Assembly (NCBI GenBank): GCA_041738575.1
Contig: JBGSPO010000181.1
Location: 1-60,019, forward strand
DNA from: Candidatus Aminicenantia bacterium
GTDB taxonomy: Bacteria > Acidobacteriota > Aminicenantia > UBA2199
Length of the DNA: 60,019 nt
Reading direction: 5' to 3'
This document shows, in pieces, positions 5,957 to 49,723 of the stretch. Position 1 is the first letter of the stretch; each line of letters begins with the position of its first letter. A model generated the notes under the pieces. The model did not search any database. It was not told where the DNA came from and worked only from the letters and a program-made list of their open reading frames with translations. The translations under genes were made by a program, and so were the position numbers.

Positions 5957-7243
5957 TTAAACCCAGCCTCTCAGCTTGCAAGCCTCGGCGACGCGGTTCA
6001 CGGCGATCATGTAGGCGGCGTCGCGCATGTACACTTTTTTCTGCTTGGCAAGGCCGTAGACGGCATGGAAAGCCGAGGTCATGATGTTGTCGAGCTTGCT
6101 CAGGACCTCTTCCTTGGTCCAGAAATAGTTCATGTTGCACTGGACCTGTTCAAAGTAGCTGCAGGTGACCCCGCCGGCGTTTGCCAGGAAGTCGGGGATG
6201 ACGAAGATGTTCTTTTTCTTAAACACTTCGTCGGCTTCGGGGGTGGTCGGGCCGTTGGCGCCCTCGGCGACCACCTTCACCTTGGCGGAGATCTTCTTTA
6301 CGGTCTCGGCGTTGATCTGGTTCTCCAGGGCGGCGGGCACCAGGATGTCGACCTCCTGCTGGATCCAGGCCTCGGCGTCGGCCACTTCGTAGCCCAGTTC
6401 CTTGGCCTTGGCCTTGTCGATGCCGCCGAACTTGTCGGTGATGCCCAGCAGCTGCTCGAGGTCGATGCCGCTCTTCTTGATGAAGGTATAGGATTTACTT
6501 TCCTTCTGGTCCCAGCAGGAGACGCAGACGGCCGTGCCACCGTATTCCTGGTAGAGCTTGACGGCATACTGCGAGACATTGCCGAAGCCCTGGAAAGCGG
6601 CGCTCGTCTTCTTGATGTCGATGCCCAGTTCGTTCAGGGCCTCGCGCAGGGTGTAAATGACGCCGAAGCCCGTGGCCTCGGTGCGACCCAGCGACCCGCC
6701 CATGCCCACCGGCTTGCCGGTAATGAAGCCGGGGTACTTGCCGCCGGTCAGCTTCTCGTACTCGTCCATGATCCAGATCATATGCTGGGCGTTGGTCATG
6801 ACGTCGGGGGCCGGCACGTCCAGCAGCGGGCCGACCATGCGGGAAATCTGGCGCACCCAGCCGCGGCAGATCTGTTCCTGCTCGCGCATGGAAAGGTTGT
6901 GCGGATCGCAGATGACGCCGCCCTTGCCGCCGCCCAGCGGGATGTCGACCACCGAGCACTTCCAGGTCATCCAGGTGGCCAGGGCCTTCACCGTGTCGAT
7001 GGTTTCCTGGGGGTGGAAGCGGATGCCGCCCTTGCAGGGGCCGCGGGAGTCGTTGTGCTGCACGCGGAAGCCCTGGAAGATCTTGACGGTGCCGTCGTCC
7101 ATCTTGACCGGGATGGAAAAGTGGAACTCGCGGATCGGGTTTCTCAGCAGGTCGCGGGTGGCCTGGTCCAGGTCCAGCTTCTCGGCGACATTGTCGAATT
7201 GGGTTTGCGCCATTTTGAAAGCGTTGAATGATTTATCAGCCAT
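5957..7243 (-). CDS. gdhA: glutamate dehydrogenase (Glu/Leu/Phe/Val dehydrogenase family)
   Basis: 428 aa. Contains GGIRFHPQETIDTVKALATWMTWKCSVVDIPLGGGKGGV (catalytic Lys region) and a Rossmann segment FQGFGNVSQY. Strong RBS AAGGAGG. Confidence 0.93.
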   Translation of the reverse strand: MADKSFNAFKMAQTQFDNVAEKLDLDQATRDLLRNPIREFHFSIPVKMDDGTVKIFQGFRVQHNDSRGPCKGGIRFHPQETIDTVKALATWMTWKCSVVDIPLGGGKGGVICDPHNLSMREQEQICRGWVRQISRMVGPLLDVPAPDVMTNAQHMIWIMDEYEKLTGGKYPGFITGKPVGMGGSLGRTEATGFGVIYTLREALNELGIDIKKTSAAFQGFGNVSQYAVKLYQEYGGTAVCVSCWDQKESKSYTFIKKSGIDLEQLLGITDKFGGIDKAKAKELGYEVADAEAWIQQEVDILVPAALENQINAETVKKISAKVKVVAEGANGPTTPEADEVFKKKNIFVIPDFLANAGGVTCSYFEQVQCNMNYFWTKEEVLSKLDNIMTSAFHAVYGLAKQKKVYMRDAAYMIAVNRVAEACKLRGWV

Positions 7244-7278
7244 TTATGTTACCTCCTTGTGATATTTTGGCTAGCCTT

Positions 7279-7308
7279 ATTTTACCACTTTTCGGTGCTT
7301 TTTGTAAA
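7279..7308 (-). promoter_or_regulatory. sigma70-like promoter for gdhA
   Basis: On the minus strand: TTTACA (7308-7303), an 18-nt spacer, then TAAAAT (7284-7279), about 35 nt upstream of the gdhA ATG in an AT-rich intergenic stretch. Confidence 0.45.
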
Positions 7309-7365
7309 TAGTTTACTTTGTAACAATAAATTTTCCCGCCGCTGTCCTCTGGGCACGCTCCGCTC

Positions 7366-9930
<2,565 letters not shown>

Positions 9931-36782: not shown

Positions 36783-38075
36783 ATGGGAATGACAATGGTT
36801 GAAAAGATACTGGCCAAAGCAACGGGCCAGTCCGCGGTCAAGGCGAATGACGTGCTTGAGCCCAGGGTCGACCTGGCCATGTCGCACGAGAACGGCGCCC
36901 TGGTGATCAACCAGTTCAGCGAGATCTACAAGGACACGGGGCTCGAGGCCAAGGTGTGGGACCCGGCGAAGATCGCCATCATCTTCGACCACCGCGTGCC
37001 GGCCGAAAGCGCGAAGACGGCCGGCAACCAGAAGAAGATCCGCGACTTCGTGGCCAAGCAGGGCATTACCAAGTTCCACGACATCCGCGGCGACAGCGGC
37101 GGCATCTGCCACCAGATCCTCCCCGAGTTTGGCTACGTGCGGCCGGGCAGCGTCGTGGTCGGCACCGACAGCCACACCACCAGCCATGGCGCCCTGGGCG
37201 CCTTTTCCTTCGGCATTGGCGCCACCGAGATGGCCGCGGTCTGGGCCCTGGGCAAGGTCTTGAACGTAGAGGTGCCGGGCACGATCAAGGTGGTCTGCGA
37301 GGGCAAGTTCAAGCGCCACGTCGCGCCCAAGGACCTGATCCTGCACCTGATCGGCAAACTGACCGCCGAAGGGGCCAACTTCAAGGTCATCGAGTTCCAC
37401 GGCCCGGCCATCGAGAACATGTCGACCTCCGGCCGGCTGGTGATCTGCAACATGACGGTCGAAGCGGGCGCCACTTCGGGCATCGTTCCTCCCGACGCCG
37501 AAACGCGGCGCTACCTGCAGGAAGAGGCCGGCGTCAAGGACCTTCCCGAGTTCTTCGGCCCCGACGCCGACGCGAGCTATGACCAGGTGATCACCGTCAA
37601 CGTCTCCAAGCTGCAGCCGCAGATCGCTTGCCCGCACACGGTGGACAACGTCAAGCCCATCAAGCAGGTCCTGGGCACGAAGCTCAACCAGATCGTCATC
37701 GGCTCCTGCACCAACGGCCGCCTCGACGATCTGGCCATCGCCGCCAAGATCCTCAAGGGCAAGAAGGTGGCCAAGGGCACGCGCATGCTGATCTTTCCGG
37801 CCTCGACGCGCATCTACCTGCAGGCCCTGAAGAAAGGCTATGTCGCCACCTTCATGGAAGCCGGCGCCGTGGTCATGAACTCGGGCTGCGGCCCCTGTCT
37901 GGGCGTGCACCAGGGGGCGCTCGCCGACGGTGACGTCGCCCTGGCCACGACCAACCGCAACTTCAAGGGACGCATGGGCAACCCCAACGCCGACGTCTAT
38001 CTCTGCTCGCCGGCCGTGGCCGCCGCCAGCGCCATCACCGGCGTCATCACCGACCCGAGAAAAAAAGGAGAGTAG
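36783..38075 (+). CDS. aconitase-family dehydratase large subunit (LeuC / homoaconitase type, short archaeal-like form)
   Basis: 430 aa. Motifs GTDSHTTSHGALGAFSFGIGATEMA, GSCTNGRLDDL and NSGCGPCLG. Confidence 0.88.
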   Translation: MGMTMVEKILAKATGQSAVKANDVLEPRVDLAMSHENGALVINQFSEIYKDTGLEAKVWDPAKIAIIFDHRVPAESAKTAGNQKKIRDFVAKQGITKFHDIRGDSGGICHQILPEFGYVRPGSVVVGTDSHTTSHGALGAFSFGIGATEMAAVWALGKVLNVEVPGTIKVVCEGKFKRHVAPKDLILHLIGKLTAEGANFKVIEFHGPAIENMSTSGRLVICNMTVEAGATSGIVPPDAETRRYLQEEAGVKDLPEFFGPDADASYDQVITVNVSKLQPQIACPHTVDNVKPIKQVLGTKLNQIVIGSCTNGRLDDLAIAAKILKGKKVAKGTRMLIFPASTRIYLQALKKGYVATFMEAGAVVMNSGCGPCLGVHQGALADGDVALATTNRNFKGRMGNPNADVYLCSPAVAAASAITGVITDPRKKGE

Positions 38076-38079
38076 CAAC

Positions 38080-38580
38080 ATGGCCAAAGTAGTTTTTAAA
38101 ACGGGAGACGATGTCTCCACCGATATCATCTATCCTGGCCGCTTCATGGCCACCGTCCTGCCGACCGAGACCCCGCAGTTCGCCTTCATCGATTATCCCG
38201 ATTTCAATGCCAAGATCAAGAGCAAGGAGTTCCCGCCGCAGAGCATCATCGTGGCCGGCAAGAACTTCGGCTGCGGCTCCTCGCGCGAGCAGGCCGCCTC
38301 GTGCCTGAAGGGCCCCGACTTCGTGGTGATCGCCCGCAACTTTTCGCGCATCTTCCTGCAGAACGCCATCAACCTGGGCTTGAAAATGGTGATCTGCCCG
38401 GCCATCGATGCCAATGTCGGCGACGAACTGGAGATCACGGCTGACCAGGTGGTCAACAAGACCTCGGGCAAGAGCTTCCCGATCATCGCCCTGCCCAAGG
38501 CCCGGCAGGCCATCATCGACGCCGGCGGGCTGATCCCTTTCGCCCGCAAGCTGGTGATCGCTTCCCAGGGCAAGCGCTGA
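38080..38580 (+). CDS. aconitase-family dehydratase small subunit (LeuD / HacB type)
   Basis: 166 aa. Motifs DDVSTDIIYPGRF and AGKNFGCGSSREQA. ATG lies 4 nt after the large-subunit stop. Confidence 0.88.
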   Translation: MAKVVFKTGDDVSTDIIYPGRFMATVLPTETPQFAFIDYPDFNAKIKSKEFPPQSIIVAGKNFGCGSSREQAASCLKGPDFVVIARNFSRIFLQNAINLGLKMVICPAIDANVGDELEITADQVVNKTSGKSFPIIALPKARQAIIDAGGLIPFARKLVIASQGKR

Positions 38581-38582
38581 GC

Positions 38583-39404
38583 TTGTCGGCACTGAATTTC
38601 AAGGAGGCGTTGGCAGCCCTCGCCAGGGCGTTTCCCGCATACTTGTTCCATGCGGCAGCCCTGGTTCTCGGCGGACTGCTGATTCTCCTTGAATTCGGGT
38701 TGGCCTTGTTTGCTTTGCGCCTGGCGCGGATCACGGCTCCCGCAGCGGCTCCGCTCCTGGCGGCATTGATCCTGCTGGGAGGCTGGCTGACCGTCCTGGC
38801 CTGGCAGCGCTTCTTCCTCTACCGTCGCCGTGCCATCATGCTTGCCATGTTCTTCGGGATGGCTCCCGCCCAGGCCGGGTCCGAGGCCCGGCGCTTTTTT
38901 CCGGTCTATTCAAGCTGGGTCCGCTGGAACCGCCGTGTGCGCCAGGCATTCATTGGCCTGGGCGTGGAAAACGAGCCGGCAGCCCTCTCCACGCCTGGAA
39001 CTTTCGGCCGGCTGGCCGAGGCGGCATTCAGTGCGGTTGTCTTCGCCCTGGCTTTCGCCCGCGGCGGCGATCCGGCGGCGGCGATCCGGGAAAGTGTGGC
39101 GCTCTATTGGCGGCACGGGAACCAGGCCAGGCGCCTGATAAAAAGCTGGTCTATGTTTTCGCTTGCCGGCCTGGCGCTTCTTTTCCTGTTCCTGGCCCTG
39201 CCCAACTGGTTCATTTTCAGCAGCGCCGGCGCGCCCCCGGCGATCGGGCTTGTCCTGGCCCTGGTCATCGCCTGGACGCTGCACCAGGCCTTCATCTCGC
39301 CGTTGGCCCTGGCCGGAGCGAGCGCAGCGCTGTTGTCCGAAACTCAAGGCTGTGAACCCGATGCCGCCCTCTGCGAAAAAATCGCGCTCCTGCTTACTCC
39401 TTGA
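38583..39404 (+). CDS. hypothetical polytopic membrane protein
   Basis: 273-aa ORF with a TTG start, 4-5 hydrophobic segments and no recognised family. Its stop codon lies inside alpha-2-macroglobulin (A2M) 3'-end relic D. Confidence 0.4.
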   Translation: MSALNFKEALAALARAFPAYLFHAAALVLGGLLILLEFGLALFALRLARITAPAAAPLLAALILLGGWLTVLAWQRFFLYRRRAIMLAMFFGMAPAQAGSEARRFFPVYSSWVRWNRRVRQAFIGLGVENEPAALSTPGTFGRLAEAAFSAVVFALAFARGGDPAAAIRESVALYWRHGNQARRLIKSWSMFSLAGLALLFLFLALPNWFIFSSAGAPPAIGLVLALVIAWTLHQAFISPLALAGASAALLSETQGCEPDAALCEKIALLLTP

Positions 39405-39463
39405 CTCGACCGTCTCACTGGTGATCATGCCGGAGTACTGTGGGTGGTTCATCCCATGGTCGA
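39394..39463 (-). pseudogene. relic D: truncated, frameshifted copy of the alpha-2-macroglobulin gene 3' end
   Basis: The first 12 nt (ttactccttgac) are identical to 43840-43851. Overall identity is about 75% over 70 nt, with one 1-nt deletion. It translates to MNHPQYSGMITSETVE, compared with MYHPQYFGRTAIQTIEV in the intact gene. Confidence 0.65.
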
Positions 39464-39617
39464 AAAACCATTATTGAAATACTGCAAATATATTGATTAC
39501 ATGAAAGATTTCAGGCAAATTCAGAAAAAGGACTTGCAGCCATGATGCATAAATGATTTGCGAGATTATTCCTTGTCGCTATCCCCTTTGGCATGCGTGT
39601 TGCCTAATTGGCCTATC

Positions 39618-40859
39618 TCAGAACAGGCGCCAGGAAGCCAGCACGGCAAGGATCCCCAGAGACGACAGCGCCATGATCGTGCAGTGGATGCGGCCGGCCA
39701 GGGTCCAGTAGCGAGCGTGCCACGCCTTCCAGCAGACAACGAGCAGGACAGAGCTCAAGAGGATGAACAGCCAGGGCCCGAGGCGCAGGGCCCCGCCGTG
39801 GGCAGGGACCAGCCGCGGGGCCGAGAGCAGGAGCAGGAGATACGCGGACTGGAGCAAGGCGATCGCACCGAGAGCGAGCTTGACGGACAGCGGTACCCGC
39901 TTCGCGATCGATTTGCCTGCCTTTTCCTTTCTCAGCCAGCGGAAAATGGCTCGCGACACCCAGAAAAGCAGGGTGAACAGCAGGAACCAAAGGGCGAACG
40001 AGGTAAAAAAAAATGCCCCTCGGGAGGCGAGCATCCGTGCCTCCAGCTTGGGAGGAAACAGGGGGACCGTGTCGATGCTGTGACGTCCCTTGGCGAGCTC
40101 GGCTTCCAGATCGAACACGATCTCCCGGTTGAAATCATGGAAATGGTAATAATGGATCCGCCTGGCATTCAGGTCCAGGACATAAGAGTACTGGGTGTTT
40201 CTCCCGCTCACGGCCCGCAGAATTTCGCGGCAGGAGGCCACGGTCGGAGTCTCCATCCGCGACAGCATGCCCACGGCCGTCCGGTAACGAGGGCAGGTGG
40301 GCCCGTGGCCTGCCAGCTCGGACTGGCGGAAATTGGTACAGACCTGGAAGCGTCCGTCGCCGCGGATGATCCGCTCGCCCTCGATGATGATCGAATTGCC
40401 GTTCCGGTCGCCAAACATCCACTGGGCGGAATACAAGCGGATGCGGTGCCGGCGGGCCAGCGCCTCCACTTCGCCGACGGTGGCGCACTCGGCCAGCGAC
40501 TTGTCCACGAAGTCGAAAGACAGGTCCTGGACATGAGTTCCGTCTGCCTGGGCCGGCACGAGGCGCGGGACGGCGAAGCCGTCGATAAAGAGCCCCTGGT
40601 CGTTCATGCCCCCTTCCCGCTCCTCGGCATTTCCGGCGGGATCGAACGTGCCGAAATAGACCATGCCGTGGCGAGCGGGGCCGCCGGGAATGAACCAGAT
40701 GCGCAGGTTCGTGGCGTTGTTGTCCTCGTTGTTGCCCACAAGAGTTGTTTTGGCATTCCGCACGATGAAGCCCGTGCAGGCGTGAGCAAACGGTGAAAGC
40801 AGGGCAAAGAGCAGCAGGGCCAGCGGCAGCGCTGGTGGCATGCTTCTCTGTCGTGTCAT
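39618..40859 (-). CDS. exported Ntn-hydrolase (choloylglycine hydrolase/C59-like or C45-like) with a C-terminal 4-helix membrane domain
   Basis: Signal peptide MTRQRSMPPALPLALLLFALLSPFAHA is followed directly by Cys (CTGFIV...VGNNEDNN), the hallmark of an N-terminal nucleophile. The last about 130 aa contain four hydrophobic helices. The 563-aa track ORF is an upstream run-on through relic B. Confidence 0.6.
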   Translation of the reverse strand: MTRQRSMPPALPLALLLFALLSPFAHACTGFIVRNAKTTLVGNNEDNNATNLRIWFIPGGPARHGMVYFGTFDPAGNAEEREGGMNDQGLFIDGFAVPRLVPAQADGTHVQDLSFDFVDKSLAECATVGEVEALARRHRIRLYSAQWMFGDRNGNSIIIEGERIIRGDGRFQVCTNFRQSELAGHGPTCPRYRTAVGMLSRMETPTVASCREILRAVSGRNTQYSYVLDLNARRIHYYHFHDFNREIVFDLEAELAKGRHSIDTVPLFPPKLEARMLASRGAFFFTSFALWFLLFTLLFWVSRAIFRWLRKEKAGKSIAKRVPLSVKLALGAIALLQSAYLLLLLSAPRLVPAHGGALRLGPWLFILLSSVLLVVCWKAWHARYWTLAGRIHCTIMALSSLGILAVLASWRLF

Positions 40860-40962
40860 AATTTTATTACGTGCGGGACGGATTGAAGGTTCAACGCCTG
40901 GCGGCCATTTCCAAAATCCGCGGCGTCCAGGCCCGGCTTCTCCGAGGAACTTGCTCCTCTGT

Positions 40963-41133
40963 TTATTCCCTAACCTCAACCTGCCGGATCGCCGTGCGGC
41001 CGAAATACTGCGGGTGGTACATGCCCTGGGCGACCGTGGGCATCCAGGTGAAGCGGCCCGAATACATGGCCTTGATGAAATAGACGATGCGCAGCGGCCC
41101 CTGCATGGAATAGGTGTAGAAGACCAGGCGGTC
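40963..41133 (-). pseudogene. relic B: truncated copy of the last 56 codons plus stop of the alpha-2-macroglobulin gene
   Basis: Hand alignment to 43840-44010 gives 155/171 nt identical with no indels, including a 62-nt perfect run (40997-41058 = 43874-43935). It encodes DRLVFYTYSMQGPLRIVYFIKAMYSGRFTWMPTVAQGMYHPQYFGRTAIRQVEVRE and a stop. Similarity ends abruptly upstream of 41133. Confidence 0.85.
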
Positions 41134-41217
41134 TGGCGCAATGGTCTGATTTGGATCTTCGAGTAGGCAGTATCGCCCGTCATTGACAATGTAAATGATC
41201 TGCTGCAGAATCGAAGC

Positions 41218-41604
41218 ATGGTGAAACGACCGCCGCCGGCGATTCGCGCCATCCTTTGCTCCCTGCTTGTCATTTCCGCCCTGCTTCCGGCAGCCGGCTG
41301 CAGGTCCATGGCTGCCCAGCAAAAAAAGATCGACGCCTATGAGGCCTCGGGCAAGTGTTTCAAATGCAAAGGCAGCGGCGAGGTCGAATGCCCGCAATGC
41401 AAGGGCCGGGGATGGATCACGTGCCCCCGGTGTTCGGGCAGCGGCAGAAACTCCGGCGTGCCGGCGACCAGCGTCGATCCCGCGAATTTTTGTCAGGCGT
41501 GCCAGGGCCATGGCCAGCTCGCTTGCCCGAATTGCGATGGCTTTTCACGCCTGAGTTGTGACCGCTGCGGTGGCAGCGGCATTGCTCCCCAAAAAGCGTA
41601 TTGA
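41218..41604 (+). CDS. lipoprotein with six DnaJ-type CxxCxGxG zinc-finger motifs
   Basis: Lipobox LLPAAGC. Motifs CFKCKGSG, CPQCKGRG, CPRCSGSG, CQACQGHG, CPNCDG and CDRCGGSG. 128 aa. Confidence 0.65.
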   Translation: MVKRPPPAIRAILCSLLVISALLPAAGCRSMAAQQKKIDAYEASGKCFKCKGSGEVECPQCKGRGWITCPRCSGSGRNSGVPATSVDPANFCQACQGHGQLACPNCDGFSRLSCDRCGGSGIAPQKAY

Positions 41605-41718
41605 CCTCGGGGATCCCACCATGAGGAAAATTGATTTTCCTGTCAGTTTCACGTATGGATTTTAGGCGGAAGGGAGCCGGAATGCCCCCGACCTGCCTGA
41701 TCAAGGGGAGATAGGATC

Positions 41719-42285
41719 GTGCGCAACCAACACACTGCCTTGCTGATTTTATTGTTCGCATGTACCACTGCCGGATGCACGAGAGACATAGAGCTTGTCG
41801 GCTATGGTCTCCGTCCTGGAATCCAGCATGGACTGAAAGTCGAGTTGGTCGGCAACGGCCCGAGCGGGGCATTGATCAGCGTTCAGAACATGTCGAACAA
41901 TATCATATCGATCAATCAATCGCCCTTGGCAATCATTGTCTCCGTGAAGAGGCGCAAGGGTGAGGGATTGGTCGCTGTCGAGCCTTGCGAGCGCATCATG
42001 ATCCACATGAATACCTCTCCGCGGCCAGATGATTTTGTAATCATTGCGCCGCGCCAGACGAGGAACATTTCTGTCCCCGTTTCATACAAAGCGGATCGCT
42101 ACCATACACTCGATAAAATCTACAGGATCGAGAAGGGCGATCTGTACGAGGTCGAAGTGCGGCTCGTTCCATATTTTGGAACATTCACCCAGGAGACGGC
42201 CGGCAAGACGTTGGCCGCTCTCATGATCCCAAACTATCTGCCCCAACCGTTGATGATGAATACCATGACCATCCGGGCGCGATAA
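41719..42285 (+). CDS. hypothetical lipoprotein
   Basis: GTG start. Signal and lipobox LLILLFACTTAGC. 188 aa, beta-rich, no recognised domain, and visibly lower GC than its neighbours. Confidence 0.5.
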   Translation: MRNQHTALLILLFACTTAGCTRDIELVGYGLRPGIQHGLKVELVGNGPSGALISVQNMSNNIISINQSPLAIIVSVKRRKGEGLVAVEPCERIMIHMNTSPRPDDFVIIAPRQTRNISVPVSYKADRYHTLDKIYRIEKGDLYEVEVRLVPYFGTFTQETAGKTLAALMIPNYLPQPLMMNTMTIRAR

Positions 42286-42288
42286 TGG

Positions 42289-42444
42289 TTATTCCGCTTC
42301 ACCGGGGCGGTGATTGTCCCTCCCGGGTTCCTTGCTGACCTCGATGGTCTGGATGGCGGTGCGGCCGAAGTACTGCGGGCGGTATATGCCCCGGACGGTC
42401 GCCGGCATCCAGTTGCGGCGGCTGGTGTTGACTGCCCGGAAACC
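42289..42444 (-). pseudogene. relic C: diverged truncated copy of an alpha-2-macroglobulin 3' end
   Basis: It translates to NGFRAVNTSRRNWMPATVRGIYRPQYFGRTAIQTIEVSKE plus a 12-codon tail and a TAA. Identity to 43849-43926 is about 80% over 42337-42414. An in-frame stop lies immediately upstream (42466-42468). Confidence 0.75.
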
Positions 42445-42558
42445 GTTCGATCCCCTATTGGCATATCATTTGACTTTATTTTGCTTCGGAGTATAAAGGC
42501 ACGAAGAAGGCTCCCGAGCGGGAGCTGCGGTATTTCAGGATCAGCAGGAGGTGTTCGC

Positions 42559-43692
42559 ATGTGTCAACGATGGGTCAGTGTCCTCTTCGTGGTGATGGCG
42601 TTTTCCCTGATATTACCCGGCCAGGCCGGATCTTGGAAGCAGATCGGCAAGGCCAAGGCCTGGGCCGGCACCATTGCCGGGGTGCCGCTCAACGGCAAGC
42701 TCTATACGGTGGATCAGAGCGGGGCGCTCTACGCGACCGAGCCGGCCAGCGGGGCCTGGAAACAACTGGGCAAGCCCGACTTCACCGCCACTGCGCTGCT
42801 GATGGCGGCTGCCGGCAGGCTTTTCACCATCGAGAATGACGGAAGCCTGTACGCGATCGATCCTGCCAGCGGCGCGTGGCAGCGGCTGGGCGCGGCCGGG
42901 TCCTGGGCTGGCACCATTGCCGGCGTGGGGCTGAACGGCAAGCTCTATACCGTGGAAAAGAGCGGCGCCCTGTACGTGACCGATCCCGCCAGTGGGGCAT
43001 TCAAGCTTCTCGGCAAACCCGATTTTGCCGCCACCGCTTTTCTGCTGGCTGCGGCCGGCAAGCTCTATTCCATTGAAAAGGACGGCAGCCTCTATGCCAT
43101 CGAGCCGGCTAACGGGTCCTGGAAACGGGTCGGAGCCGCTGCAGGCTGGGCCAACACGATTGCTGCCTGCGGCACGCCGGGCGCCATCCTGACCGTCGAG
43201 CGCGGCGGCAAGCTCTATGCCACCGATCCTGCCAGCGGAGTCTGGAAACAACTTGGCAAGACCGACTTCGCCGCCACCCGCTTCATGCTCCCCTGCTCGG
43301 GCAACCTCTTCACCATCGAGCGGGAAGGCAGTCTCTTTCAAGTGGACATCGGCGGGGCTGCGCCCTCCCTGGCGCCAGCGCCGGTGGCAAACACGGCGAG
43401 CGCCGCCGCAGTGGCCGGCAATCTGACTTTTGCCTTCATGGGCACCTGGCTGAACGAATCGGGCATGACCATGAGGGTGACCCTCGACGGCATCACCATG
43501 TCGATGGACGGCAAGCAGATCGGCCCGATCCCGTTCCAGGTGATCACCTCCAAAGGCAACACGCTGCTGATCGAAAGCAGCGAACCCGGCAAGGGGCCGA
43601 CCCGCCAGGAGATCGTCTTTCTCGAGGCCAAGCGCATTCAAATGGGCGAACAGGGGAGGACGGACCGGACCCTGACCTTCGTCAAGAAGTAG
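42559..43692 (+). CDS. secreted repeat (putative six-bladed beta-propeller) protein with a small C-terminal domain
   Basis: Signal peptide MCQRWVSVLFVVMAFSLILPGQAG. Six about 40-aa units of the type GKLYTVxxSGALYxTDPASGAWKxLGKPDF. CAGGAGG RBS before the ATG at 42559. The track ORF start at 42310 runs through relic C. Confidence 0.65.
   Translation: MCQRWVSVLFVVMAFSLILPGQAGSWKQIGKAKAWAGTIAGVPLNGKLYTVDQSGALYATEPASGAWKQLGKPDFTATALLMAAAGRLFTIENDGSLYAIDPASGAWQRLGAAGSWAGTIAGVGLNGKLYTVEKSGALYVTDPASGAFKLLGKPDFAATAFLLAAAGKLYSIEKDGSLYAIEPANGSWKRVGAAAGWANTIAACGTPGAILTVERGGKLYATDPASGVWKQLGKTDFAATRFMLPCSGNLFTIEREGSLFQVDIGGAAPSLAPAPVANTASAAAVAGNLTFAFMGTWLNESGMTMRVTLDGITMSMDGKQIGPIPFQVITSKGNTLLIESSEPGKGPTRQEIVFLEAKRIQMGEQGRTDRTLTFVKK
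42661..43389 (+). repeat. three in-frame tandem repeats of 243 nt inside the propeller gene
   Basis: Units start at 42661, 42904 and 43147 (tgggccggcaccattgcc / tgggctggcaccattgcc / tgggccaacacgattgct). Units 1 and 2 are clearly similar at the nucleotide level; unit 3 is more diverged. Confidence 0.8.
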
Positions 43693-43839
43693 CCACGCAG
43701 CTTTATCGCTGGGCAGATCAACGCCGGTTCAAGAGATCACCGCATCCCCTGGACGGGCGGTCAGTAGTATCACGTCGGCTCGAAGCCGGATTTCCAGAAC
43801 GACGCCCCGGGACGAATAATTTGCTGCCGGGCCTCGGGA

Positions 43840-46800
43840 TTACTCCTTGACCTCGATCGTCTGGATCGCCGTCCGGCCGAAATACTGCGGGTGGTACATG
43901 CCCTGGGCGACCGTGGGCATCCAGGTGAAGCGGCCGCCGTACATGGCCTTGATGAAGTAGACGATGCGCAGCGGTCCCTGCAGGGAATAGGTGTAGAAGA
44001 CCAGGCGGTCGGCGGCGTTCTCCTGGCGCGCCCAGGGCGTTCGGTATTTGTTTTGGTTCGTCGTATTGAATTCCTGCAGTGAGCGGGTGCTGGCGATGTC
44101 CTGGCGCAGCAGCTCGAAGCCGGCGGCCAATGGTTCGTCGACCACGCCGTAGGGGACTTCCTTGTCGGACTGGATCAACAGCTCGACCATGTAGGTCTGC
44201 CCGCGCAGGAAACTGGTGACCGACTCCCCTTTTTCGTTGTAGACGTTGCGCCGGATGTCGATGCCGCGGTTCTTTTTCCCGGCCCTGGCCAGTTTCCAGG
44301 TCAGCTCGCTGGTGACATAGACGGGCTGGTCGGCTGTAATCAGCACCTCGATCTGTTTGCTTGTGTCTGTGATCTTTTTTTGCGCCTGCAATACATCCCT
44401 GGGATTGGCAAATTCCTTGCCGGTCTTTTCGCCCAGCAAGACGATCTCGGCCCCGCGTGCAGTCGTCTTTTCAATCTGCCGCAGGTAATCGTCCATGGCG
44501 CAGAGGATCCAGAAGTTGGTCTGGGTCGTGTTCCAGCAATAAGGCTCGGCTTCGAGCAGCCAGTTGATGATGCGCTCGGCCAGCACGTGGCCTTTTTCCA
44601 CCTCCAGAACGGCCTGCAGCAGAAGGGCGGTGGCGAAGCGCGAGGAGTAGAATGGGAAGTCGCGGTGATAGGTGAATTCGCCAACGTCGAAATAGGCGAA
44701 GTCGGCCTCGACCTGCAGGCTGTTGTTGAACTCGTCCAGCATGGTTTTCAGCGTCCGTTCCTCGATTCCCTGGTTGTGCAGGGCCCGGTACAGGAAGACC
44801 TTGCCGGGCAAGGGCAGGCCGTCGCGCTCGGCTGCAAGCTTCTTCAGCTTCTTGTTGTCGGCCTTTTTGTCCAGGCTCAGCACGAACTGGTGGAAGCTGG
44901 CGCAGGTCGCGTCGAGGCTGGCGTGCTGCAGGTAAGTGGAGAGCTTCTGCAGCAGCTGCGGGTCGACCTTGTAATCGCGCTCCCGGGCCAGGTTCAATGC
45001 CCAGAGGACGTAGGCGGTCAGGTAGTCTGATGCGTACTGGCCGCCGCGGTAATAGGAGAGAGCCCCGTTGGCGCCCATGAATTCGGGGATGATCTTCAGG
45101 TAGCCGTTCACTGCTTCGCGGATCTGCGCCGCATCAAGGCCCAGGTCCAGGCGCTCGGCAAGCTGCGGGCTGAGCGCGAGGAAAGGCATGACCTTCGAGG
45201 TCCGCTGCTCCAGGCATTCGTAGGGATAGAAGACCAGCTTCCTGGCGATGTTGACCGCCGGGCGCAGCAGCGAGGGGGCGACCTTGATGGTGATGGCCTG
45301 CTGCTCGCCCTCGGCCTGGGGCTCGATCATTTTTTTCACCCTCTTGCCGCTGGCGAAATCGAGGAGGGTTTCGCTGACCAGGCGGTCGCTGACCATGAGC
45401 TTTTTCTCCAGGCCGTCCTTGTCGGCGGCGCTCAGGGCGAAGAATTCGACCTTGGCCTCGCCGACGCGCTCGGCCAGGAACGGAAACTGGAACAGGCCGT
45501 TTCCGCGCGGGTCAAGGGCACCCTGCAGCTGGGACGAGCCGCGAACCATTACGCCTTGCGGTTTGACCAGCAGGGTGAAGGAAAGCTTTCCGGCGGTGCG
45601 GTTGCTGAGCTGGGCGCCGGCGCTGAACTCGTCGCCCTGGCGGGCGAACTCGGGCATGGCCTCGGAGATGAGCAGGTCCTTGCTGACCATGATCTTCTTT
45701 TCTGCCGCACCGAAACTGTCTTCGCTGTAGGCCACGGCCATGATGCGATAGGTGGACAGCTGGTCGGAGCTCGTGAAATCGACAACGGCGTTCCCCGCCT
45801 CGTCGGTCTCCACGACCTTGAAGAACAGTACTTCCTTAAAATCGCTGCGCACGCGGATGCCGGCTATGGCGGCCTCGACACCGCCAAGCACTCCGCCGAC
45901 CATCCCGTCCGCCTCTTCCTCGCCCAGTTTCATACGGGCCATGCTTTTCATTTCCGCGGCCATGGGCGCGGGCATGATGCCGCCTGCAACACCACCATTC
46001 GGACCGAACTCATCTGCGGAGTTCCAATATTTGTCGGCCGAGACCGGGATCAACGCCATGTCGCAAGGGCGGTGGCTGCCGCCGTCAAAATAGATGTCGG
46101 ACCAGAGGAAAGGATGAAAACCCTTGGCTTCAGCCTTGACCGCGTAGCGGCCGCCGGGAAAACCGGGGAAAGAATAATATCCCTGGACGCTGGTCGTTGT
46201 CGTCTTCAGCTTGTTGTGTTTTTCATCCTCAAGGGTGACCGTGGCCCCGGCCAGCGGCGTGGAGTTGGGACTGAAGACGCAACCGAAAATAGCCGGCGCC
46301 TTCAGGTCGATGTCCATAAGGGGGCGCTCGAAGTTCCATTGTTTGTAATTCTTTGAATAATAGGTATGAATCGGTTTTGCCCACAGGCCAAAATAAGAAA
46401 AATATTCATGCGGGTCAGGCGTCTGGTAGTTTAGCAGGGACAGGTTGCCTTCATCCACGGCATATACGAAAAGCTTCGCCTTTACCCCCTTTTTCTGGTT
46501 ATCGCTGACCTTGATCTTCACTTTGGTCTTGCTAGCTGGCTTGATCTCGCCCGGGCTTTCCAAGTCCACCCGCAGGATCTTGCTGTCATCCTCTACTTTA
46601 AACTCCCTGGCGGCTTGCTCGGAGATGTTGTTGCCGTACATGGCGACAACGCTGACGCGGATGGCCGGGAAATATTCTTTCTTGACCGGGATATCCAATG
46701 GCGTCATCTTCTGCAGCGCGATGACCCGGGAATCGAGCACCTTCCCCCTTTCGATGGTCACCAGCGCCTGACCCTCCCGGGTGGAATGAATGAAGCACTT

Positions 46801-49575
46801 CAGCGTCTCGCCGATATGCAGAGTATGTTGATTGGATTCGATCCGCAGCTTGTCGGTCCCTTCGGAGTAGCCCCCGCCCCAAACAAAGAAACCGCCCGAG
46901 GTCGAAACCACGCGGCCGTTCGCGTCGGAGGTGTCGCAACGCAGGATATAATGGCCGGCTTCCGGAACGCGAAACAAGTGGGTTTTTGTTTTTTCAATGT
47001 AAACATCGTCGGGACCGGAAACTTTCTTTAGCAGGCGCCGGGATTTTTCATAATATTCCCTGTAGAGCGTGACGCGGATTTCGCCGGAAGCGGGTTTTCC
47101 CTGGAAATCGACCAGGGCCAGTTCGGATTTGATTGGTCCTTTCAGGTTCTGGTAAAAGTCGATATGGATTCCGGTCAGGAGATTTCCCGGGAAAAACAAT
47201 GACTGGGCCTGGGCGGTGAATTCCTTGCCTTCAGCTGATTTTCCTGTTGCAAAAAAGCCGAGTTTGGCCAGGAAATTAGTTTCCTTGAAATCGGCCATGG
47301 GGATGCTCAGAGTGTATTTGCCGTTGGCATCCAGTTTTTTGCTCCCTTTCCGCGGCGGGTCGCTCTTTGCCAGGTCGCGGTCGAGCCCGAAATTGAAGCG
47401 CTCCAGTCCATTCGTCGTGAACACTTTGGCAGCAACCGGATTCAGTCCGAAAACATAGCCAAAAGTATCGCCAGCCATGGGATTGCCTGCCAGGTAGGAA
47501 CCGCTGACAACAGGGTGGAACGTATCTTCCGGGAGGTAATGCTCCGCCATGCCGGAGATCTTCATTTCAAAAGTATTTGGCTGGTAGTAATCGATGGTCA
47601 CGTTGTGCTGGCCTTGCCAGGTTTGCATGTCCACGAATCTGACAATGATCTGGTGGCGGCCTTTTTTGCCTGCCGGGTCGGATTTGAATTCGTAGTGAAA
47701 GCCGCCCCAGCGGTCGAGCTGGAGAGAGTCGGTCTTGAGCTGTTGACGGTCGGGACCAAAAATTTGCAGGGTTGCCGCCGTGGCCTTTGGTGAAAAGATC
47801 TTCCCGGCCTTGTACTCCTTGATGATTCCGGCGATATGGACCGTGTCGCCGGGCTTGTAAAAATCCCGTTCGCTGAAGACCGTGATCCTGACCTCGCGGT
47901 CGGATGGGGGCCGGCGGTCGATCCTGGCCAGGGCCATGTCATTGTCGTTCGTATTCCTGGCCATGACCAGGTCGGATTCCTGGATCTCCCTGTCGCTGAG
48001 CAGCACGCCGTTTACGGCCGATTCTCCCAGGGGCATGGCATCCTTGGCATAACCCTTAAGGAAGAACGGCATCTTTCCCACCCCTTTGCCGCTGCGGTTG
48101 TCGTATAGCCAGTACAAGGTCTGTTCCTGGCCGGCCTTGATGACCATGTCCATGTTGCGGCGGTGGAAAACGTGCATGTCCTGGGGAGTGAAGGCGGGAA
48201 GGCGCATTAAGGCGATGTCCCGGCAGGCATTGTATGGTTCGTAGCTCTGGACCAAAACGCCGAAAAACCCCAGGGGCGATCCCAATTCTTGATCCCGCAA
48301 TGCGGGGTTGTTCGATTTCTCCGGCAGCCCGGTGAATTTTTGCAGGATCTCTTTCTCGATGAAGTCAGCCTTGAAATCCTTTTTCTGCAGCAAGCCAAAT
48401 TCCCGGTCAGTCAGCTGGGTATAAAATTCGGGCTTGAGCTTGAGCAAGCGGACGCTGGCCTGCTTCATGCTGTTGGCGGTCATGGACAATTTATGATCCT
48501 GCAGGGAAAAGTCGAGGCGCGGGGACTGGCTGGAGCAGACCCGGGCTTCGAGTTCCAGGTTCTCGGGAAGCCGCTCTTTGTACGTGTTGGACAGGTCCCG
48601 GTCGATTCTTATGTTCAGGCGATCGCCCGAGGCCAATTCGTCTTCCACGCTGATGAACAAGACTTCATTCTCATATTGGCGGGGCTCGAGATGGAATTTA
48701 AGGGGCGATCGTTCCAAGCCGGAGATTTTATGGACCTGGATTAGCCTGTCGTTGAATTCAGCCAGCGCGTTGGAGAACGGCAACCAAACATGGGGCGCAT
48801 CGGGAAAGAGGACCAGGGGGTGCCGGCCGGAATAGTGAAAAGTAGGCACCGTGTCGAAAGTGAAGGTGAAATCCTTGGCCGTGCCGGTATTACCCTCGCT
48901 GCCGCGAAAGCCTTTTTTGACGATGAGCTGGTAAAGCAAGCCTCGTTTCAGAGCGCTGGCGAAGCGGACCGCGATTTCTTCATTCGCCTTTTGCTGGAGC
49001 AGGATTTCCGCCCGCACGCCGCTCTTGGCCTCCTTGAGGACGAAAAAGCTTTTGGCTCCGCCAATGGTGACCGGCTGGTTGAAGCGCAGGGTAACGGGGT
49101 CTTTCACCCAGATCTCGCCGTCGAGCTTTTCCCCCGGCGTCAGCCGCGAAAAATAATCCCGGTCTCCGACCTTGACCTCGACGGGATAGGCCTGGGGCGT
49201 GCTCCATTGCCAGCGTATCTCCCCGGGCAGCACCTTTCCCGCCAGCGAGCCCGTTCCGGCCGGGATCACGGCCGTGTAGGTGGTGGAGTAGCGGAAGCGC
49301 GGCTCGGGCTTGAAGGCCAGGGTGCGATTGCCGCGCCAGGAAAATTCACCCTTGACCGCCGGGGTGATCCTGACCAGCGAGGCGCCGTCGCGTTTGCCGC
49401 CCAACGGCAGCATGTCGTCGGAAAAGGTGACGGTCAGTTCCCTGTTTTCCAGGCTCTGCAGGATGCCGGAAAGGTTGTAGGCCGCTTTCAGGCCCTCCTT
49501 TTCCGGCGCCTGGGCGACGGCCGCGGCCAGGAATAGGGTCAGCATGATGGTCGCAATGGATAGTGCAATTTTCAT
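43840..49575 (-). CDS. bacterial alpha-2-macroglobulin family protein with an intact thioester motif
   Basis: 1911 aa from MKIALSIATIMLTLFLAAAVAQA (signal peptide, AGGAGG RBS). The thioester motif YPYECLEQRTSK has CLEQ encoded at 45205-45216. There is a CarboxypepD_reg-like insert (TPLAGATVTLEDE...GYYSFPGFPGGRYAVKAEAKGF). The C-terminus DRLVFYTYSL...MYHPQYFGR is typical of the A2M receptor-binding-like end. Confidence 0.88.
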   Translation of the reverse strand: MKIALSIATIMLTLFLAAAVAQAPEKEGLKAAYNLSGILQSLENRELTVTFSDDMLPLGGKRDGASLVRITPAVKGEFSWRGNRTLAFKPEPRFRYSTTYTAVIPAGTGSLAGKVLPGEIRWQWSTPQAYPVEVKVGDRDYFSRLTPGEKLDGEIWVKDPVTLRFNQPVTIGGAKSFFVLKEAKSGVRAEILLQQKANEEIAVRFASALKRGLLYQLIVKKGFRGSEGNTGTAKDFTFTFDTVPTFHYSGRHPLVLFPDAPHVWLPFSNALAEFNDRLIQVHKISGLERSPLKFHLEPRQYENEVLFISVEDELASGDRLNIRIDRDLSNTYKERLPENLELEARVCSSQSPRLDFSLQDHKLSMTANSMKQASVRLLKLKPEFYTQLTDREFGLLQKKDFKADFIEKEILQKFTGLPEKSNNPALRDQELGSPLGFFGVLVQSYEPYNACRDIALMRLPAFTPQDMHVFHRRNMDMVIKAGQEQTLYWLYDNRSGKGVGKMPFFLKGYAKDAMPLGESAVNGVLLSDREIQESDLVMARNTNDNDMALARIDRRPPSDREVRITVFSERDFYKPGDTVHIAGIIKEYKAGKIFSPKATAATLQIFGPDRQQLKTDSLQLDRWGGFHYEFKSDPAGKKGRHQIIVRFVDMQTWQGQHNVTIDYYQPNTFEMKISGMAEHYLPEDTFHPVVSGSYLAGNPMAGDTFGYVFGLNPVAAKVFTTNGLERFNFGLDRDLAKSDPPRKGSKKLDANGKYTLSIPMADFKETNFLAKLGFFATGKSAEGKEFTAQAQSLFFPGNLLTGIHIDFYQNLKGPIKSELALVDFQGKPASGEIRVTLYREYYEKSRRLLKKVSGPDDVYIEKTKTHLFRVPEAGHYILRCDTSDANGRVVSTSGGFFVWGGGYSEGTDKLRIESNQHTLHIGETLKCFIHSTREGQALVTIERGKVLDSRVIALQKMTPLDIPVKKEYFPAIRVSVVAMYGNNISEQAAREFKVEDDSKILRVDLESPGEIKPASKTKVKIKVSDNQKKGVKAKLFVYAVDEGNLSLLNYQTPDPHEYFSYFGLWAKPIHTYYSKNYKQWNFERPLMDIDLKAPAIFGCVFSPNSTPLAGATVTLEDEKHNKLKTTTTSVQGYYSFPGFPGGRYAVKAEAKGFHPFLWSDIYFDGGSHRPCDMALIPVSADKYWNSADEFGPNGGVAGGIMPAPMAAEMKSMARMKLGEEEADGMVGGVLGGVEAAIAGIRVRSDFKEVLFFKVVETDEAGNAVVDFTSSDQLSTYRIMAVAYSEDSFGAAEKKIMVSKDLLISEAMPEFARQGDEFSAGAQLSNRTAGKLSFTLLVKPQGVMVRGSSQLQGALDPRGNGLFQFPFLAERVGEAKVEFFALSAADKDGLEKKLMVSDRLVSETLLDFASGKRVKKMIEPQAEGEQQAITIKVAPSLLRPAVNIARKLVFYPYECLEQRTSKVMPFLALSPQLAERLDLGLDAAQIREAVNGYLKIIPEFMGANGALSYYRGGQYASDYLTAYVLWALNLARERDYKVDPQLLQKLSTYLQHASLDATCASFHQFVLSLDKKADNKKLKKLAAERDGLPLPGKVFLYRALHNQGIEERTLKTMLDEFNNSLQVEADFAYFDVGEFTYHRDFPFYSSRFATALLLQAVLEVEKGHVLAERIINWLLEAEPYCWNTTQTNFWILCAMDDYLRQIEKTTARGAEIVLLGEKTGKEFANPRDVLQAQKKITDTSKQIEVLITADQPVYVTSELTWKLARAGKKNRGIDIRRNVYNEKGESVTSFLRGQTYMVELLIQSDKEVPYGVVDEPLAAGFELLRQDIASTRSLQEFNTTNQNKYRTPWARQENAADRLVFYTYSLQGPLRIVYFIKAMYGGRFTWMPTVAQGMYHPQYFGRTAIQTIEVKE

Positions 49576-49723
49576 TTCCGCCTCCTGAGTGTCGGGCAAG
49601 CCAAGCGGATTGGACGGCTTTTTACCCAAAATTGGCAAAAAGTCCCCCGCCGCTTCAACCGCCAGGATTATGATGAAGAAAAATGGTTTTTACAACCCCC
49701 GGCCCGCAGGGAAGCGGGAGGGC

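Follow-up and report, generated by a model that had tools for sequence, protein, structure and literature searches.

How can the end of a gene come to lie several times downstream of that gene, each time without the gene body? This question is raised by contig JBGSPO010000181.1 of a Candidatus Aminicenantia bacterium (assembly GCA_041738575.1), of which positions 1 to 60,019, the whole stretch that was analysed, are called the window here. It contains an alpha-2-macroglobulin (A2M) gene that is followed on the same strand by three further copies of its own 3' end, with different genes between them. An initial annotation, made from the sequence of the window alone, offered two explanations: repeated insertion or recombination at the 3' end of the gene, each incoming segment bringing a replacement end as at tRNA and tmRNA islands, or erosion of a tandem family of A2M paralogues to 3' stubs. 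Comparison with related loci revealed that the interval between the stop codons of A2M and of the convergent gene memb273 is a hotspot of gene gain in Aminicenantes that is devoid of mobile-element genes. To judge from sequence comparison, the additional copies are displaced former A2M ends and not remnants of paralogues. By analogy, the process is best explained as the C-terminal displacement that has been proposed for Rhs and type VI secretion system (T6SS) loci, acting here at a gene that does not encode a toxin. Recombination with a homologous anchor and illegitimate joins (homology-facilitated illegitimate recombination, HFIR), followed by homologous reshuffling through the repeated ends, probably built the array.

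Copies of the A2M 3' end in the window

A blastn search of the window with the A2M 3' end (43840-44010) recovered exactly three additional copies (B, C and D), each of them on the minus strand; the remaining matches had E values of 0.04 or worse. A repeat search and a self-comparison of the whole window by blast gave the same result, and thus the presence of three further same-strand copies without a gene body is well established. The A2M gene, the copies and the gene that bounds the interval are as follows:

43840..49575, minus strand: A2M gene, 1911 aa from ATG; alternative TTG start at 49638
43840..44010, minus strand: copy A, the present working A2M 3' end, last 57 codons and stop
42336-42422, minus strand: copy C by blastn, 81.6% identity over 87 nt, E 5.6e-19
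42331..42428, minus strand: copy C as a feature, putative displaced former A2M end, profile positions 143-240, nhmmer E 4.9e-16
40963-41138, minus strand: copy B by blastn, 90.3% identity over 176 nt, E 1.4e-64
40963..41135, minus strand: copy B as a feature, putative displaced former A2M end, last 171 nt, frame intact, own stop
39394-39463, minus strand: copy D by blastn, 74.6% identity over 71 nt, E 1.7e-6
39394..39464, minus strand: copy D as a feature, putative ancestral A2M end in place, frameshifted, nhmmer E 8e-8
38583..39404, plus strand: memb273, conserved convergent polytopic membrane-protein gene, boundary of the hotspot

Copy B aligns without a single indel across 171 nt and has retained its own TAA stop, as the initial annotation had described; directly after it, about 24 nt resemble the 3' end of memb273 (40939-40962). 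Copies A and B have an 80-nt near-identical run in common. Copy C had been assigned to 42289-42444, and this extent has to be corrected to an alignable core at about 42331-42428 (93-98 nt, 77-82% identity). The extended tail that had been noted for copy C is real: it retains NWMPATVRGIYRPQYFGRTAIQTIEV, followed by 13 extra codons, and the frame is open to the TAA at 42289-42291, giving the translation NWMPATVRGIYRPQYFGRTAIQTIEVSKEPGRDNHRPGEAE up to the stop. Copy D, reported before as about 75% identical and frameshifted, indeed carries a 1-nt deletion, and it overlaps the stop of memb273 by 11 nt. Apart from these copies, the only dispersed repeats in the window are the internal blade repeats of a propeller gene and one unrelated inverted pair. 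No other gene-end stubs were found in the self-comparison of all 60 kb, so the phenomenon is not general within this window.

Related loci and the empty site

About 75 related Aminicenantes loci were compared. They were sampled with a C-terminal A2M profile from species-representative genomes (L004-L028) and metagenome contigs (L029-L072), and extra loci were added through genomic-context look-ups. The gene order SLT-A2M-<memb273-<aconitase is conserved, and A2M is orthologous in about 50 loci. The identity of A2M is supported by Pfam matches to bMG10, A2M, A2M_BRD, MG2 and Big_5. Upstream of the gene lie SLT, a GT2 glycosyltransferase gene and purH; A2M itself heads the array, and aconitase subunit genes follow beyond memb273. 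The units between the two conserved genes of the window, to which the related loci have to be compared, are the following:

42559..43692, plus strand: secreted beta-propeller protein, 377 aa, Pfam PQQ_2, Tachylectin and DUF4394
41719..42285, plus strand: lipo188, lipoprotein of 188 aa, lipobox ...TTAGC
41218..41604, plus strand: lipoprotein of 128 aa with DnaJ-type CXXCXGXG zinc-finger repeats
39618..40859, minus strand: membrane-anchored C45/Ntn-superfamily hydrolase-like protein, 413 aa, signal peptide ending AHA/C, C-terminal transmembrane segments
39465..39617, minus strand: AT-rich spacer accompanying copy D, homologous to the left flank of the D-type stub in relatives

An empty site is common. 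In about 23 of the 50 or so loci that contain both genes, the stops of A2M and memb273 overlap or lie no more than about 60 nt apart, and the rest carry 0.6-5 kb of additional DNA. Two native architectures occur, an 11-nt overlap of the stops or a spacer of 50-60 nt with a hairpin. Copy D together with memb273 corresponds to such an empty site, because positions -65..+1549 about the A2M end of L014 are colinear with window positions 39458..37842.

The other copies can be matched in the same way. The segment consisting of copy B, the Ntn-hydrolase gene, the AT-rich spacer, copy D and memb273 matches L018, L029 and L073. Positions -174..+3119 of L018 are colinear with window positions 41138..37840 (88.8% over 3.3 kb), and for L018 and L029 taken together the colinearity with B-Ntn-D-memb273 amounts to 87-89% over 1.9-3.3 kb; in both, the position of copy B is that of the working A2M end. 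Thus, the Ntn-hydrolase gene occurs as A2M-Ntn-D-memb273 in L018, L029 and L073, and as A2M-Ntn up to the contig end in L051. The AT-rich spacer has homologues in L018, L029, L073, L074-76, L039 and L031. Copy C with lipo188 is colinear with a working A2M end and lipo188 in L030 (85%) and L039; lipo188 lies directly behind a working A2M end in L030, L036, L038, L039 and L063. The present end A with the propeller gene and copy C is colinear with L011, L037 and L027, and the propeller/C junction is of identical type in L011, L037 and L072. Moreover, L070, in which B abuts memb273, has a counterpart of the unit of the DnaJ-like lipoprotein gene and copy B with 91% identity over 661 nt.

Since a colinear arrangement with a working end exists elsewhere for each stub and the genes behind it, the stubs appear to be successively displaced former ends, and copy D would be the ancestral A2M end still in place. 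A full-length A2M paralogue at the position of any stub, which would have spoken for plain gene decay, was found in none of the about 50 syntenic loci. The initial annotation had also divided the cargo into three exported-protein cassettes. The genes are present, yet a division of the intervals into four units is more fitting: propeller, lipo188, DnaJ-like lipoprotein and Ntn hydrolase. Export is not a general property of the cargo, because a lyase and a dCTP-deaminase-like block occupy other loci.

The arrangement is unlikely to be an artefact of assembly. Logan contig L001, obtained independently from SRR28170473, matches 41556-43903 at 100% identity and spans copy C as well as the junction between lipo188 and the DnaJ-like lipoprotein gene, the sole junction that is unique to this contig; all remaining junctions of the window recur in assemblies of other species. 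The left edge of copy B lies outside the 80-nt run common to A and B, and therefore a repeat-induced misjoin cannot have made this edge. Exact-protein look-ups with A2M, the Ntn hydrolase, the DnaJ-like lipoprotein and the deposited protein P0035 recovered no further independent contigs across copy B. Every junction is thus corroborated by L001 or by other species, which speaks against the chimeras or collapsed paralogues that had been named as a possible refutation.

Stub boundaries across the hotspot

Stubs in the occupied loci were searched for with a nucleotide profile built from the final 243 nt of A2M. At least nine independent stubs were identified. Except for one, the stubs share the strand of A2M and have their right edge at the stop position. 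The right edge is common because the homology between A2M genes ends at the stop. In contrast to the constant right edge, the left edges vary from about -43 to about -360 nt. By the profile position at which they start, the stubs fall into these groups:

Start 45: L066-69
Start 67-76: window copy B and L070; L065; L073
Start 140: L023
Start 143-150: window copy C, L011, L072, L037
Start 159: L009
Start 171-181 (D-type): window, L018, L029, L073, L074-76, L039, L031, L034
Start 187: L020
Start 200: L022
About 360 nt, exceeding the 243-nt profile: L077

Stubs that have flanking sequence in common are best regarded as single old events; for instance, the AT-rich spacer always precedes the D-type stub.

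A few of these loci show additional peculiarities. In L074 (6985-7037, also in L075 and L076), a 53-nt A2M-end stub between a gene for a CarboxypepD_reg-domain protein and the Ntn-hydrolase gene is inverted. L066-L069 represent a separate A2M lineage. Here, a Ser/Thr kinase-TPR gene is followed by a 3' stub of 198 nt that lacks an upstream A2M body; in L066 this stub lies at 4492-4689, and a second, internally deleted A2M fragment follows 2.5 kb further on (7204-7641). These fragments look like the loss or replacement of a gene body rather than an insertion. In L077 (199-876), the 225-aa open reading frame (ORF) P0029 consists of an AT-rich foreign N-terminus with a signal peptide that is fused in frame to the last ~120 A2M residues, and it lies in place beside memb273. 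P0029 may be a chimeric gene or a long stub that was read through by the gene caller.

Clues to the mechanism

The A2M gene itself is a mosaic. Between lineages, blocks of a few hundred nucleotides with about 60-80% and about 90-99% identity alternate, which implies frequent inter-lineage recombination inside the gene; the recombining anchor on which HFIR depends is thus found here. For instance, the identity of A2M to that of L073 is 99% at -2550..-2400, 75% at -2175..-2025, 96% at -2025..-1875 and 71% at -1800..-1650. Within window positions 43840-46840, the identity to single relatives likewise alternates block by block. Only the last ~8-10 residues of the protein form a variable tail.

By contrast with the conserved A2M, memb273 occurs as two deeply divergent allelic types (tblastn, about 50 loci). 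The window protein is more than 80% identical to those of L009, L018 and L072; the figure for most others is 43-63%, apart from three short partial matches with 75-87%. The two types differ in their 3' architecture, namely the 11-nt overlap with A2M versus the 50-60-nt spacer with a hairpin. Their distribution and phylogeny conflict with those of the adjacent aconitase gene, which indicates that memb273 itself has been exchanged between lineages. No Pfam or NCBIfam family matched memb273.

Some displaced ends clearly differ from the current end of the same locus, and replacement ends thus come from elsewhere. The stub of L022, with a tail of the NEMKTVEVSD type, is 89% identical to the ends of L019 and L003 and 68% identical to its own current end (TDTKTITISE); the stub of L020 shows 82% identity to ends of other genomes versus 67% to its own. 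Taken over all loci, the comparison of stubs with their own ends gave a mixed picture: for B, D and L023 the own working end is the best or a near-best match, and L020 and L022 violate this pattern. The test has little power, as the ends are too similar overall.

For one junction, that of L073, the sequences of both parents are available. Its order is A2M, the Ntn-hydrolase gene, the spacer, copy D, 95 nt of an overlap-type memb273 3' end joined to A2M from -176 to the stop, a spacer and finally a memb273 gene of the other type. At the join, donor-like ...GATGAAG GCCTGG TGCAG meets recipient A2M ...GCCGACC GCCTGG TCTTC, with the 6 nt GCCTGG in common. The donor-like parent continues as ...GATGAAGGCCTGGTGCAG in the window, L018 and L029, and the recipient A2M as ...GCCGACCGCCTGGTCTTCTAC. 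This junction bears the classical signature of an illegitimate join, in which the donor fragment would have ended arbitrarily inside the donor memb273 gene.

The units also lack constant ends. The right end of the propeller unit lies either 45 nt past the -35 box, followed by A2M from -100 (window, L011, L037, L072 and L027), or exactly at the -35 box, followed by a vestige of about 15 nt (L005). The propeller gene was thus captured twice with different right ends, and there is no defined cassette end. Furthermore, the same junctions occur in different contexts. The propeller gene with copy C precedes lipo188 in the window, L027 and L072, or a lyase gene in L011; in L005, the order of the units is reversed, with the lyase gene followed by the propeller gene. 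Similarly, the DnaJ-like lipoprotein gene with copy B precedes memb273 in L070 or the Ntn-hydrolase gene in the window. Homologous recombination through the repeated ends would most simply explain these arrangements. Sliding-window identity revealed no enrichment for propeller-bearing genomes in the 3' region of the window A2M beside the propeller unit. As no donor tract was found, any left crossover must lie no further than about 150 nt from the stop, unless the unit came in through the repeats.

Search for mobility machinery

As the initial annotation had stated, there is no integrase, transposase or reverse transcriptase: Pfam searches found no such domain in the about 45 ORFs of the window, nor in the cargo ORFs and called genes of the related loci. 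No recombinase is encoded in the 60-kb window or in the flanks of the about 75 loci (up to about 10 kb on each side where the contig allowed). A scan of the region detected no tRNA nearby, and an Rfam scan of the region returned no family. Pairs of terminal inverted repeats around the units were at chance level only, and no copy of an A2M end was present on the viral or plasmid-like contigs of IMG/VR.

The hallmarks of integrons and integrase islands were equally absent. No conserved core and no attC-like hairpin was detected at the unit ends; the repeats are A2M coding sequence. No intI, attI or Pc promoter lies at the head of the array, which is the A2M gene. No dif-like palindromic AT-rich motif was visible in the stub-flank alignments, which were inspected without a dif model for this phylum. 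Repeats of constant extent with a common crossover core, as expected for att sites, were not observed either, since the left edges of the stubs differ. The locus is therefore neither an integrase island nor an integron; the defining features of both were looked for and are lacking. With regard to the first explanation of the initial annotation, the general form holds, namely repeated insertion or recombination in which each segment brings a replacement end. The analogy with tRNA and tmRNA islands does not, because there is no recombinase, the left edges vary from event to event and the same cargo occurs with different ends.

A proposed route to the array

Where the stops of the two genes overlap by 11 nt, an insertion spares both genes only if the insert supplies a new A2M end. 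We propose that DNA of a related lineage would enter the cell with a 3' portion of A2M and the sequence downstream of it in the donor. The incoming DNA would pair with the resident A2M gene, which is conserved and mosaic and would serve as the homologous anchor. The other end would be unable to pair, as memb273 is too divergent, and would be joined illegitimately at a short microhomology in the 3' end of the resident A2M gene. The resident end would then persist as a 5'-truncated stub downstream of the new cargo, and repetition of the process would stack units, with the newest closest to A2M. Once present, the repeated ends may act as portable homology, through which units could be moved, reordered or deleted, either by a double crossover or when an excised circle recombines in a Campbell-type single crossover. 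Only those products would be retained in which two convergent genes with overlapping or nearly abutting ends both stay intact. This account explains the common right edge, the variable left edges, the foreign ends, the fragments of memb273 that were dragged in, the lack of a recombinase and the stacking with the newest unit nearest to A2M. The enzymology, comprising RecA and an illegitimate join, the route of DNA entry and the exact order of events are what we infer.

For the window, the following history may be suggested, the order of its middle steps being tentative. The original end D would have been displaced by the Ntn-hydrolase unit with the AT-rich spacer, in an old event common to several lineages. 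The next working end, B, would have been displaced by the unit of the DnaJ-like lipoprotein, with a junction that is also present in L070. At some stage lipo188 would have come to sit behind a working end, C, which in turn would have been displaced by the propeller unit. Some units probably arrived pre-assembled through homologous recombination. No stub of at least 43 nt exists between lipo188 and the DnaJ-like lipoprotein gene, where only a possible vestige of about 12 nt was found.

Several points weigh against this route. The direct evidence for microhomology comes from the related locus L073 and not from a junction of the window, where either only one parent is available or the join is ambiguous; the latter applies to the junction between lipo188 and the DnaJ-like lipoprotein gene (about 41616-41640), for which a reading with L030 and L070 as parents is ambiguous owing to indels. 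Three independent joins fall within about 10 nt at A2M -171..-176 (window and L070, L065, L073). This cluster exceeds the expectation for random breakage and could reflect a preferred break or a recognition site. Moreover, the target is present on both sides of the insert in L070 (-171..+92) and for the Ntn-hydrolase unit (about -70..+24), and a Campbell-type insertion or a duplication at a staggered break fits this at least as well as one-sided HFIR. The inverted stub of L074-76, the sole inverted one seen, is not predicted by simple orientation-preserving recombination. The recombinase search covered about 60 kb of this genome, and a trans-acting recombinase could be encoded elsewhere. Finally, the hosts are uncultured bacteria, and their competence and recombination enzymology are presumed. 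The rival explanations stay in contention because of these misfits, none of which calls for a new enzyme.

Among the rivals, one borrows the circles that were suggested for Rhs loci and relies on homologous recombination only: a circle with the cargo and one repeat, excised between direct repeats of A2M ends, would after its transfer be inserted by a single RecA crossover at the A2M end of the recipient, where the gene would stay intact, and the circle would set the left edge of the stub. This is unlikely as the whole explanation, despite constant cargo/stub junctions across contexts (propeller/C in the window, L011, L037 and L072; DnaJ-like lipoprotein/B in the window and L070), the different unit orders of L005 and L011, the target segment -171..+92 on both sides of the L070 insert and the precedent of a model already proposed for rhs (PMC2935791). 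A Campbell-type event cannot make the first copy of any unit, and thus an illegitimate step would still be required. The 6-nt join of L073, which drags in a truncated donor memb273 fragment, and the two right ends of the propeller gene fit it poorly; several stubs of only 43-70 nt with about 70-85% identity would be poor substrates for RecA, and no circular form was observed. This route probably complements the favoured one as a second step and does not truly compete with it. The two-sided targets in L070 and around the Ntn-hydrolase unit have also suggested that a long target-site duplication came first, by a staggered break, template switching in replication or a small tandem duplication of the overlapping gene ends, and provided neutral space in which foreign DNA landed later. 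Such a duplication would account for cargo that first lies behind an A2M end and for the own working end being the best or near-best match of B, D and the L023 stub. It is nevertheless rather improbable: the stubs of L022 and L020 are plainly of another type than the current ends of these loci, the two copies in L070 are only 80% identical as compared with 91% for the cargo between genomes, most duplications halt exactly at the stop codon instead of straddling it, and the structure of L073 represents a fragment of a donor locus and not a local duplication.

It is even less probable that the A2M/memb273 stop region acts as an attachment site for integrase-less cassettes that are mobilised by a recombinase encoded elsewhere, in the style of integrons, pdif/Xer modules or satellite islands. 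Insertions do recur in many lineages at one target of about 200 nt (sometimes about 360 nt), the cassettes comprise one to three genes, some with their own promoters, three independent joins cluster at -171..-176 and all direct stubs have a common right edge at the stop. This last feature is trivial, however, since A2M homology ends there. No recombinase is encoded in the 60-kb window or the flanks of the other loci, the left edges range from about -43 to -360 nt, and there is no conserved core, attC-like hairpin or terminal inverted repeat; the same cargo occurs with different ends, truncated pieces of the neighbouring gene are dragged in and one stub is inverted. In a related version, to which we assign an equally low probability, the region would be a docking site for small integrase-less cassettes, served by a distant recombinase or by break-and-copy with duplications of 40-360 nt, and thus a platform distinct from integrons. 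The only hints at such a site are the join cluster at -171..-176 and the two-sided duplication in L070. The least probable explanation, and one that is already largely refuted, is the second proposal of the initial annotation, decay of tandem A2M paralogues to 3' stubs, or else an assembly chimera of collapsed paralogues or strains. Deletion remnants would indeed be 5'-truncated with a common 3' boundary, the stub and second A2M fragment without a gene body in L066-69 resemble decay or deletion, and the 80-nt near-identical run of A and B could mislead short-read assemblers. Against this stand the lack of full-length paralogues at any stub position in the relatives, the about 23 empty sites, the match of each stub and its downstream genes to a single-copy working end elsewhere, the sharp edges of the stubs, the microhomology join of L073, the corroboration of every junction by other species or the Logan contig, and a left junction of B that lies outside the identical run. 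Compared with these rivals, homology-anchored recombination with illegitimate joins and subsequent reshuffling thus remains the explanation that we favour.

Comparison with known systems

C-terminal displacement is usually regarded as a feature of polymorphic toxin genes. It was proposed for the 'orphan' arrays of rhs and cdiA, together with homologous recombination involving circular intermediates (Jackson et al. 2009, PMC2935791; Poole et al. 2011, PMC3150448). As in these arrays, an intact gene precedes 5'-truncated pieces on the same strand in which a portion of the conserved region is preserved (copies B, C and D). The genes behind each piece differ, other lineages supply the new ends, and the old ends are moved downstream. 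In both cases there is no dedicated recombinase, and homologous recombination through the conserved piece is proposed. Unlike Rhs and CdiA, A2M is no polymorphic toxin, and its variable tail of ~8-10 residues contains no toxin domain. The cargo comprises unrelated envelope and metabolic genes, most of them in the opposite orientation, without immunity genes, and there is no evident selection for diversity of the tip. The A2M locus is therefore not a member of the polymorphic-toxin class, as it has neither a toxin tip nor an immunity logic. Rather, the stubs resemble incidental products of a need to preserve both convergent genes, whose ends overlap or closely abut.

Sequential displacement has also been described for T6SS effector-immunity modules of Vibrio cholerae, for which HFIR was proposed explicitly (Kirchberger et al. 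2017, PMC5361080). Like those arrays, the array described here grows outward from a conserved upstream gene that serves as an anchor, and composite arrays spread by homologous recombination. However, in Vibrio the immunity genes are selected and the effector remnants are incidental, whereas here the stubs of a gene end are retained and no toxin-immunity logic exists. HFIR itself is known from transformable bacteria, according to the work cited in PMC5361080 (de Vries & Wackernagel 2002; Prudhomme et al. 2002; Meier & Wackernagel 2003) and as covered in PMC3240628. It combines one homologous anchor with a join of the other end at a GC-rich microhomology of a few nucleotides and needs no mobile-element function, and GCCTGG in L073 fits this description. 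In contrast to HFIR in the laboratory, the join falls in the anchor gene upstream of the donor's gene end, and the 3' end of the anchor is duplicated instead of recipient DNA being deleted. HFIR has been defined in the laboratory, and few natural footprints are documented.

Similarities to integrase islands are also evident. The target gene is kept intact by a replacement 3' end, a partial direct repeat lies at the far end of the insert and tandem arrays are possible. Unlike in such islands, there is no integrase and no constant att core or repeat length, the inserts of 0.6-5 kb carry only 1-3 genes, and truncated fragments of the neighbouring gene occur at junctions. Hotspots of horizontal gene transfer that are free of mobile elements and flanked by recombining core genes are common (Oliveira et al. 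2017, PMC5635113). The A2M locus resembles them in the turnover of genes between two conserved genes across a clade, in the lack of integrases and transposases and in its mosaic flanking gene. There, a double homologous crossover leaves no scar; here, the memb273 flank is too divergent, and the joins in the A2M end leave a stack of stubs. No description of such displacement was found in the literature for A2M or for Aminicenantes, nor any paper that connects the two. The novelty that the initial annotation had suggested thus applies to this gene and this phylum, whereas the same anatomy and mechanism had already been proposed for rhs/cdiA and the T6SS arrays of Vibrio.

Cargo genes and annotation of the stubs

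Three of the four cargo genes, those for the propeller and the two lipoproteins, are on the plus strand and converge with A2M; the Ntn-hydrolase gene alone is co-oriented with it. The label of the latter rests on a subthreshold match to the C45 family NCBIfam NF040521 (E 6.7e-13, 48.7 bits versus a cutoff of 85); remoter homologues of the protein carry PF03417/PF02275. Likewise, the Pfam match of the 128-aa lipoprotein to DnaJ_CXXCXGXG (E 1e-6) is below the cutoff, and lipo188 matched no Pfam or NCBIfam family. The propeller gene contains three tandem 243-nt repeats (42627-43355), the first of which shares 75% and 60% identity with the other two; they reflect the recent duplication of blades inside this cargo gene. 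A promoter scan located the promoter-like TTGACA-17-CAGAAT at 41183-41211 (plus strand) before the DnaJ-like lipoprotein gene, and TTGACT-16-TATAAA at 42470-42497 (plus strand), with a GC hairpin at 42510-42525, was recognised by eye before the propeller gene. As these sigma-70-like sites lie inside two units and face the cargo, the cargo may bring its own expression signals.

Across the hotspot, the cargo is diverse. Besides the propeller, lipo188, the DnaJ-like lipoprotein and the C45 hydrolase, it includes a cNMP-binding aspartase/fumarase-like lyase, a PMT_2 glycosyltransferase, DUF4412 and DUF1761 proteins, a zinc-ribbon membrane protein, TPR and CarboxypepD_reg proteins and an AT-rich, dCTP-deaminase-like three-gene block. 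This block occupies the A2M/memb273 site in L012 (7190-9800), L040 and L054 and encodes proteins of 168 aa, of 501 aa with an HExxH-like motif and of 200 aa with similarity to dCTP deaminases (PF22769). It looks like an anti-phage defence islet. In L065 (about 1849-2373), a DCD-like gene with 40% identity lies within a 4.8-kb insert.

Short A2M-like proteins require caution. The deposited 182-aa 'bMG10' protein P0035 (40963-41511, minus strand) spans copy B and overlaps the DnaJ-like lipoprotein gene on the opposite strand, and it is almost certainly a spurious ORF. Short A2M proteins of 250-520 aa were considered as large orphan fragments, and this was rejected: the two that were checked, P0002 (L002) and P0003 (L003), are frameshift-split genes on error-prone long-read contigs, and the majority of the remainder stem from short contigs or are incomplete at a contig edge. 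In L002 and L003, which are ENA contigs, A2M, aconitase and purH are each split into several ORFs. Many short 'A2M' proteins in the databases thus exist because uncorrected long-read assemblies split genes.

Implications

For genome annotation, stubs of the kind described here give rise to spurious ORFs; the 182-aa 'bMG10' protein that spans copy B and P0029, the chimera of 225 aa, are examples. For the biology of the Aminicenantes, the locus provides a layered natural record of gene gain without mobile elements, in which each displaced end stands for one acquisition, the left edge of a stub for a breakpoint and its position in the stack for its relative age. Together with its about 75 relatives, it offers independent events in an uncultured phylum from which breakpoint spectra, the use of microhomology and the shuffling of cassettes can be measured. 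C-terminal displacement would thus not be specific to toxins but a general outcome when foreign DNA lands between convergent, overlapping or nearly abutting genes that must both survive.

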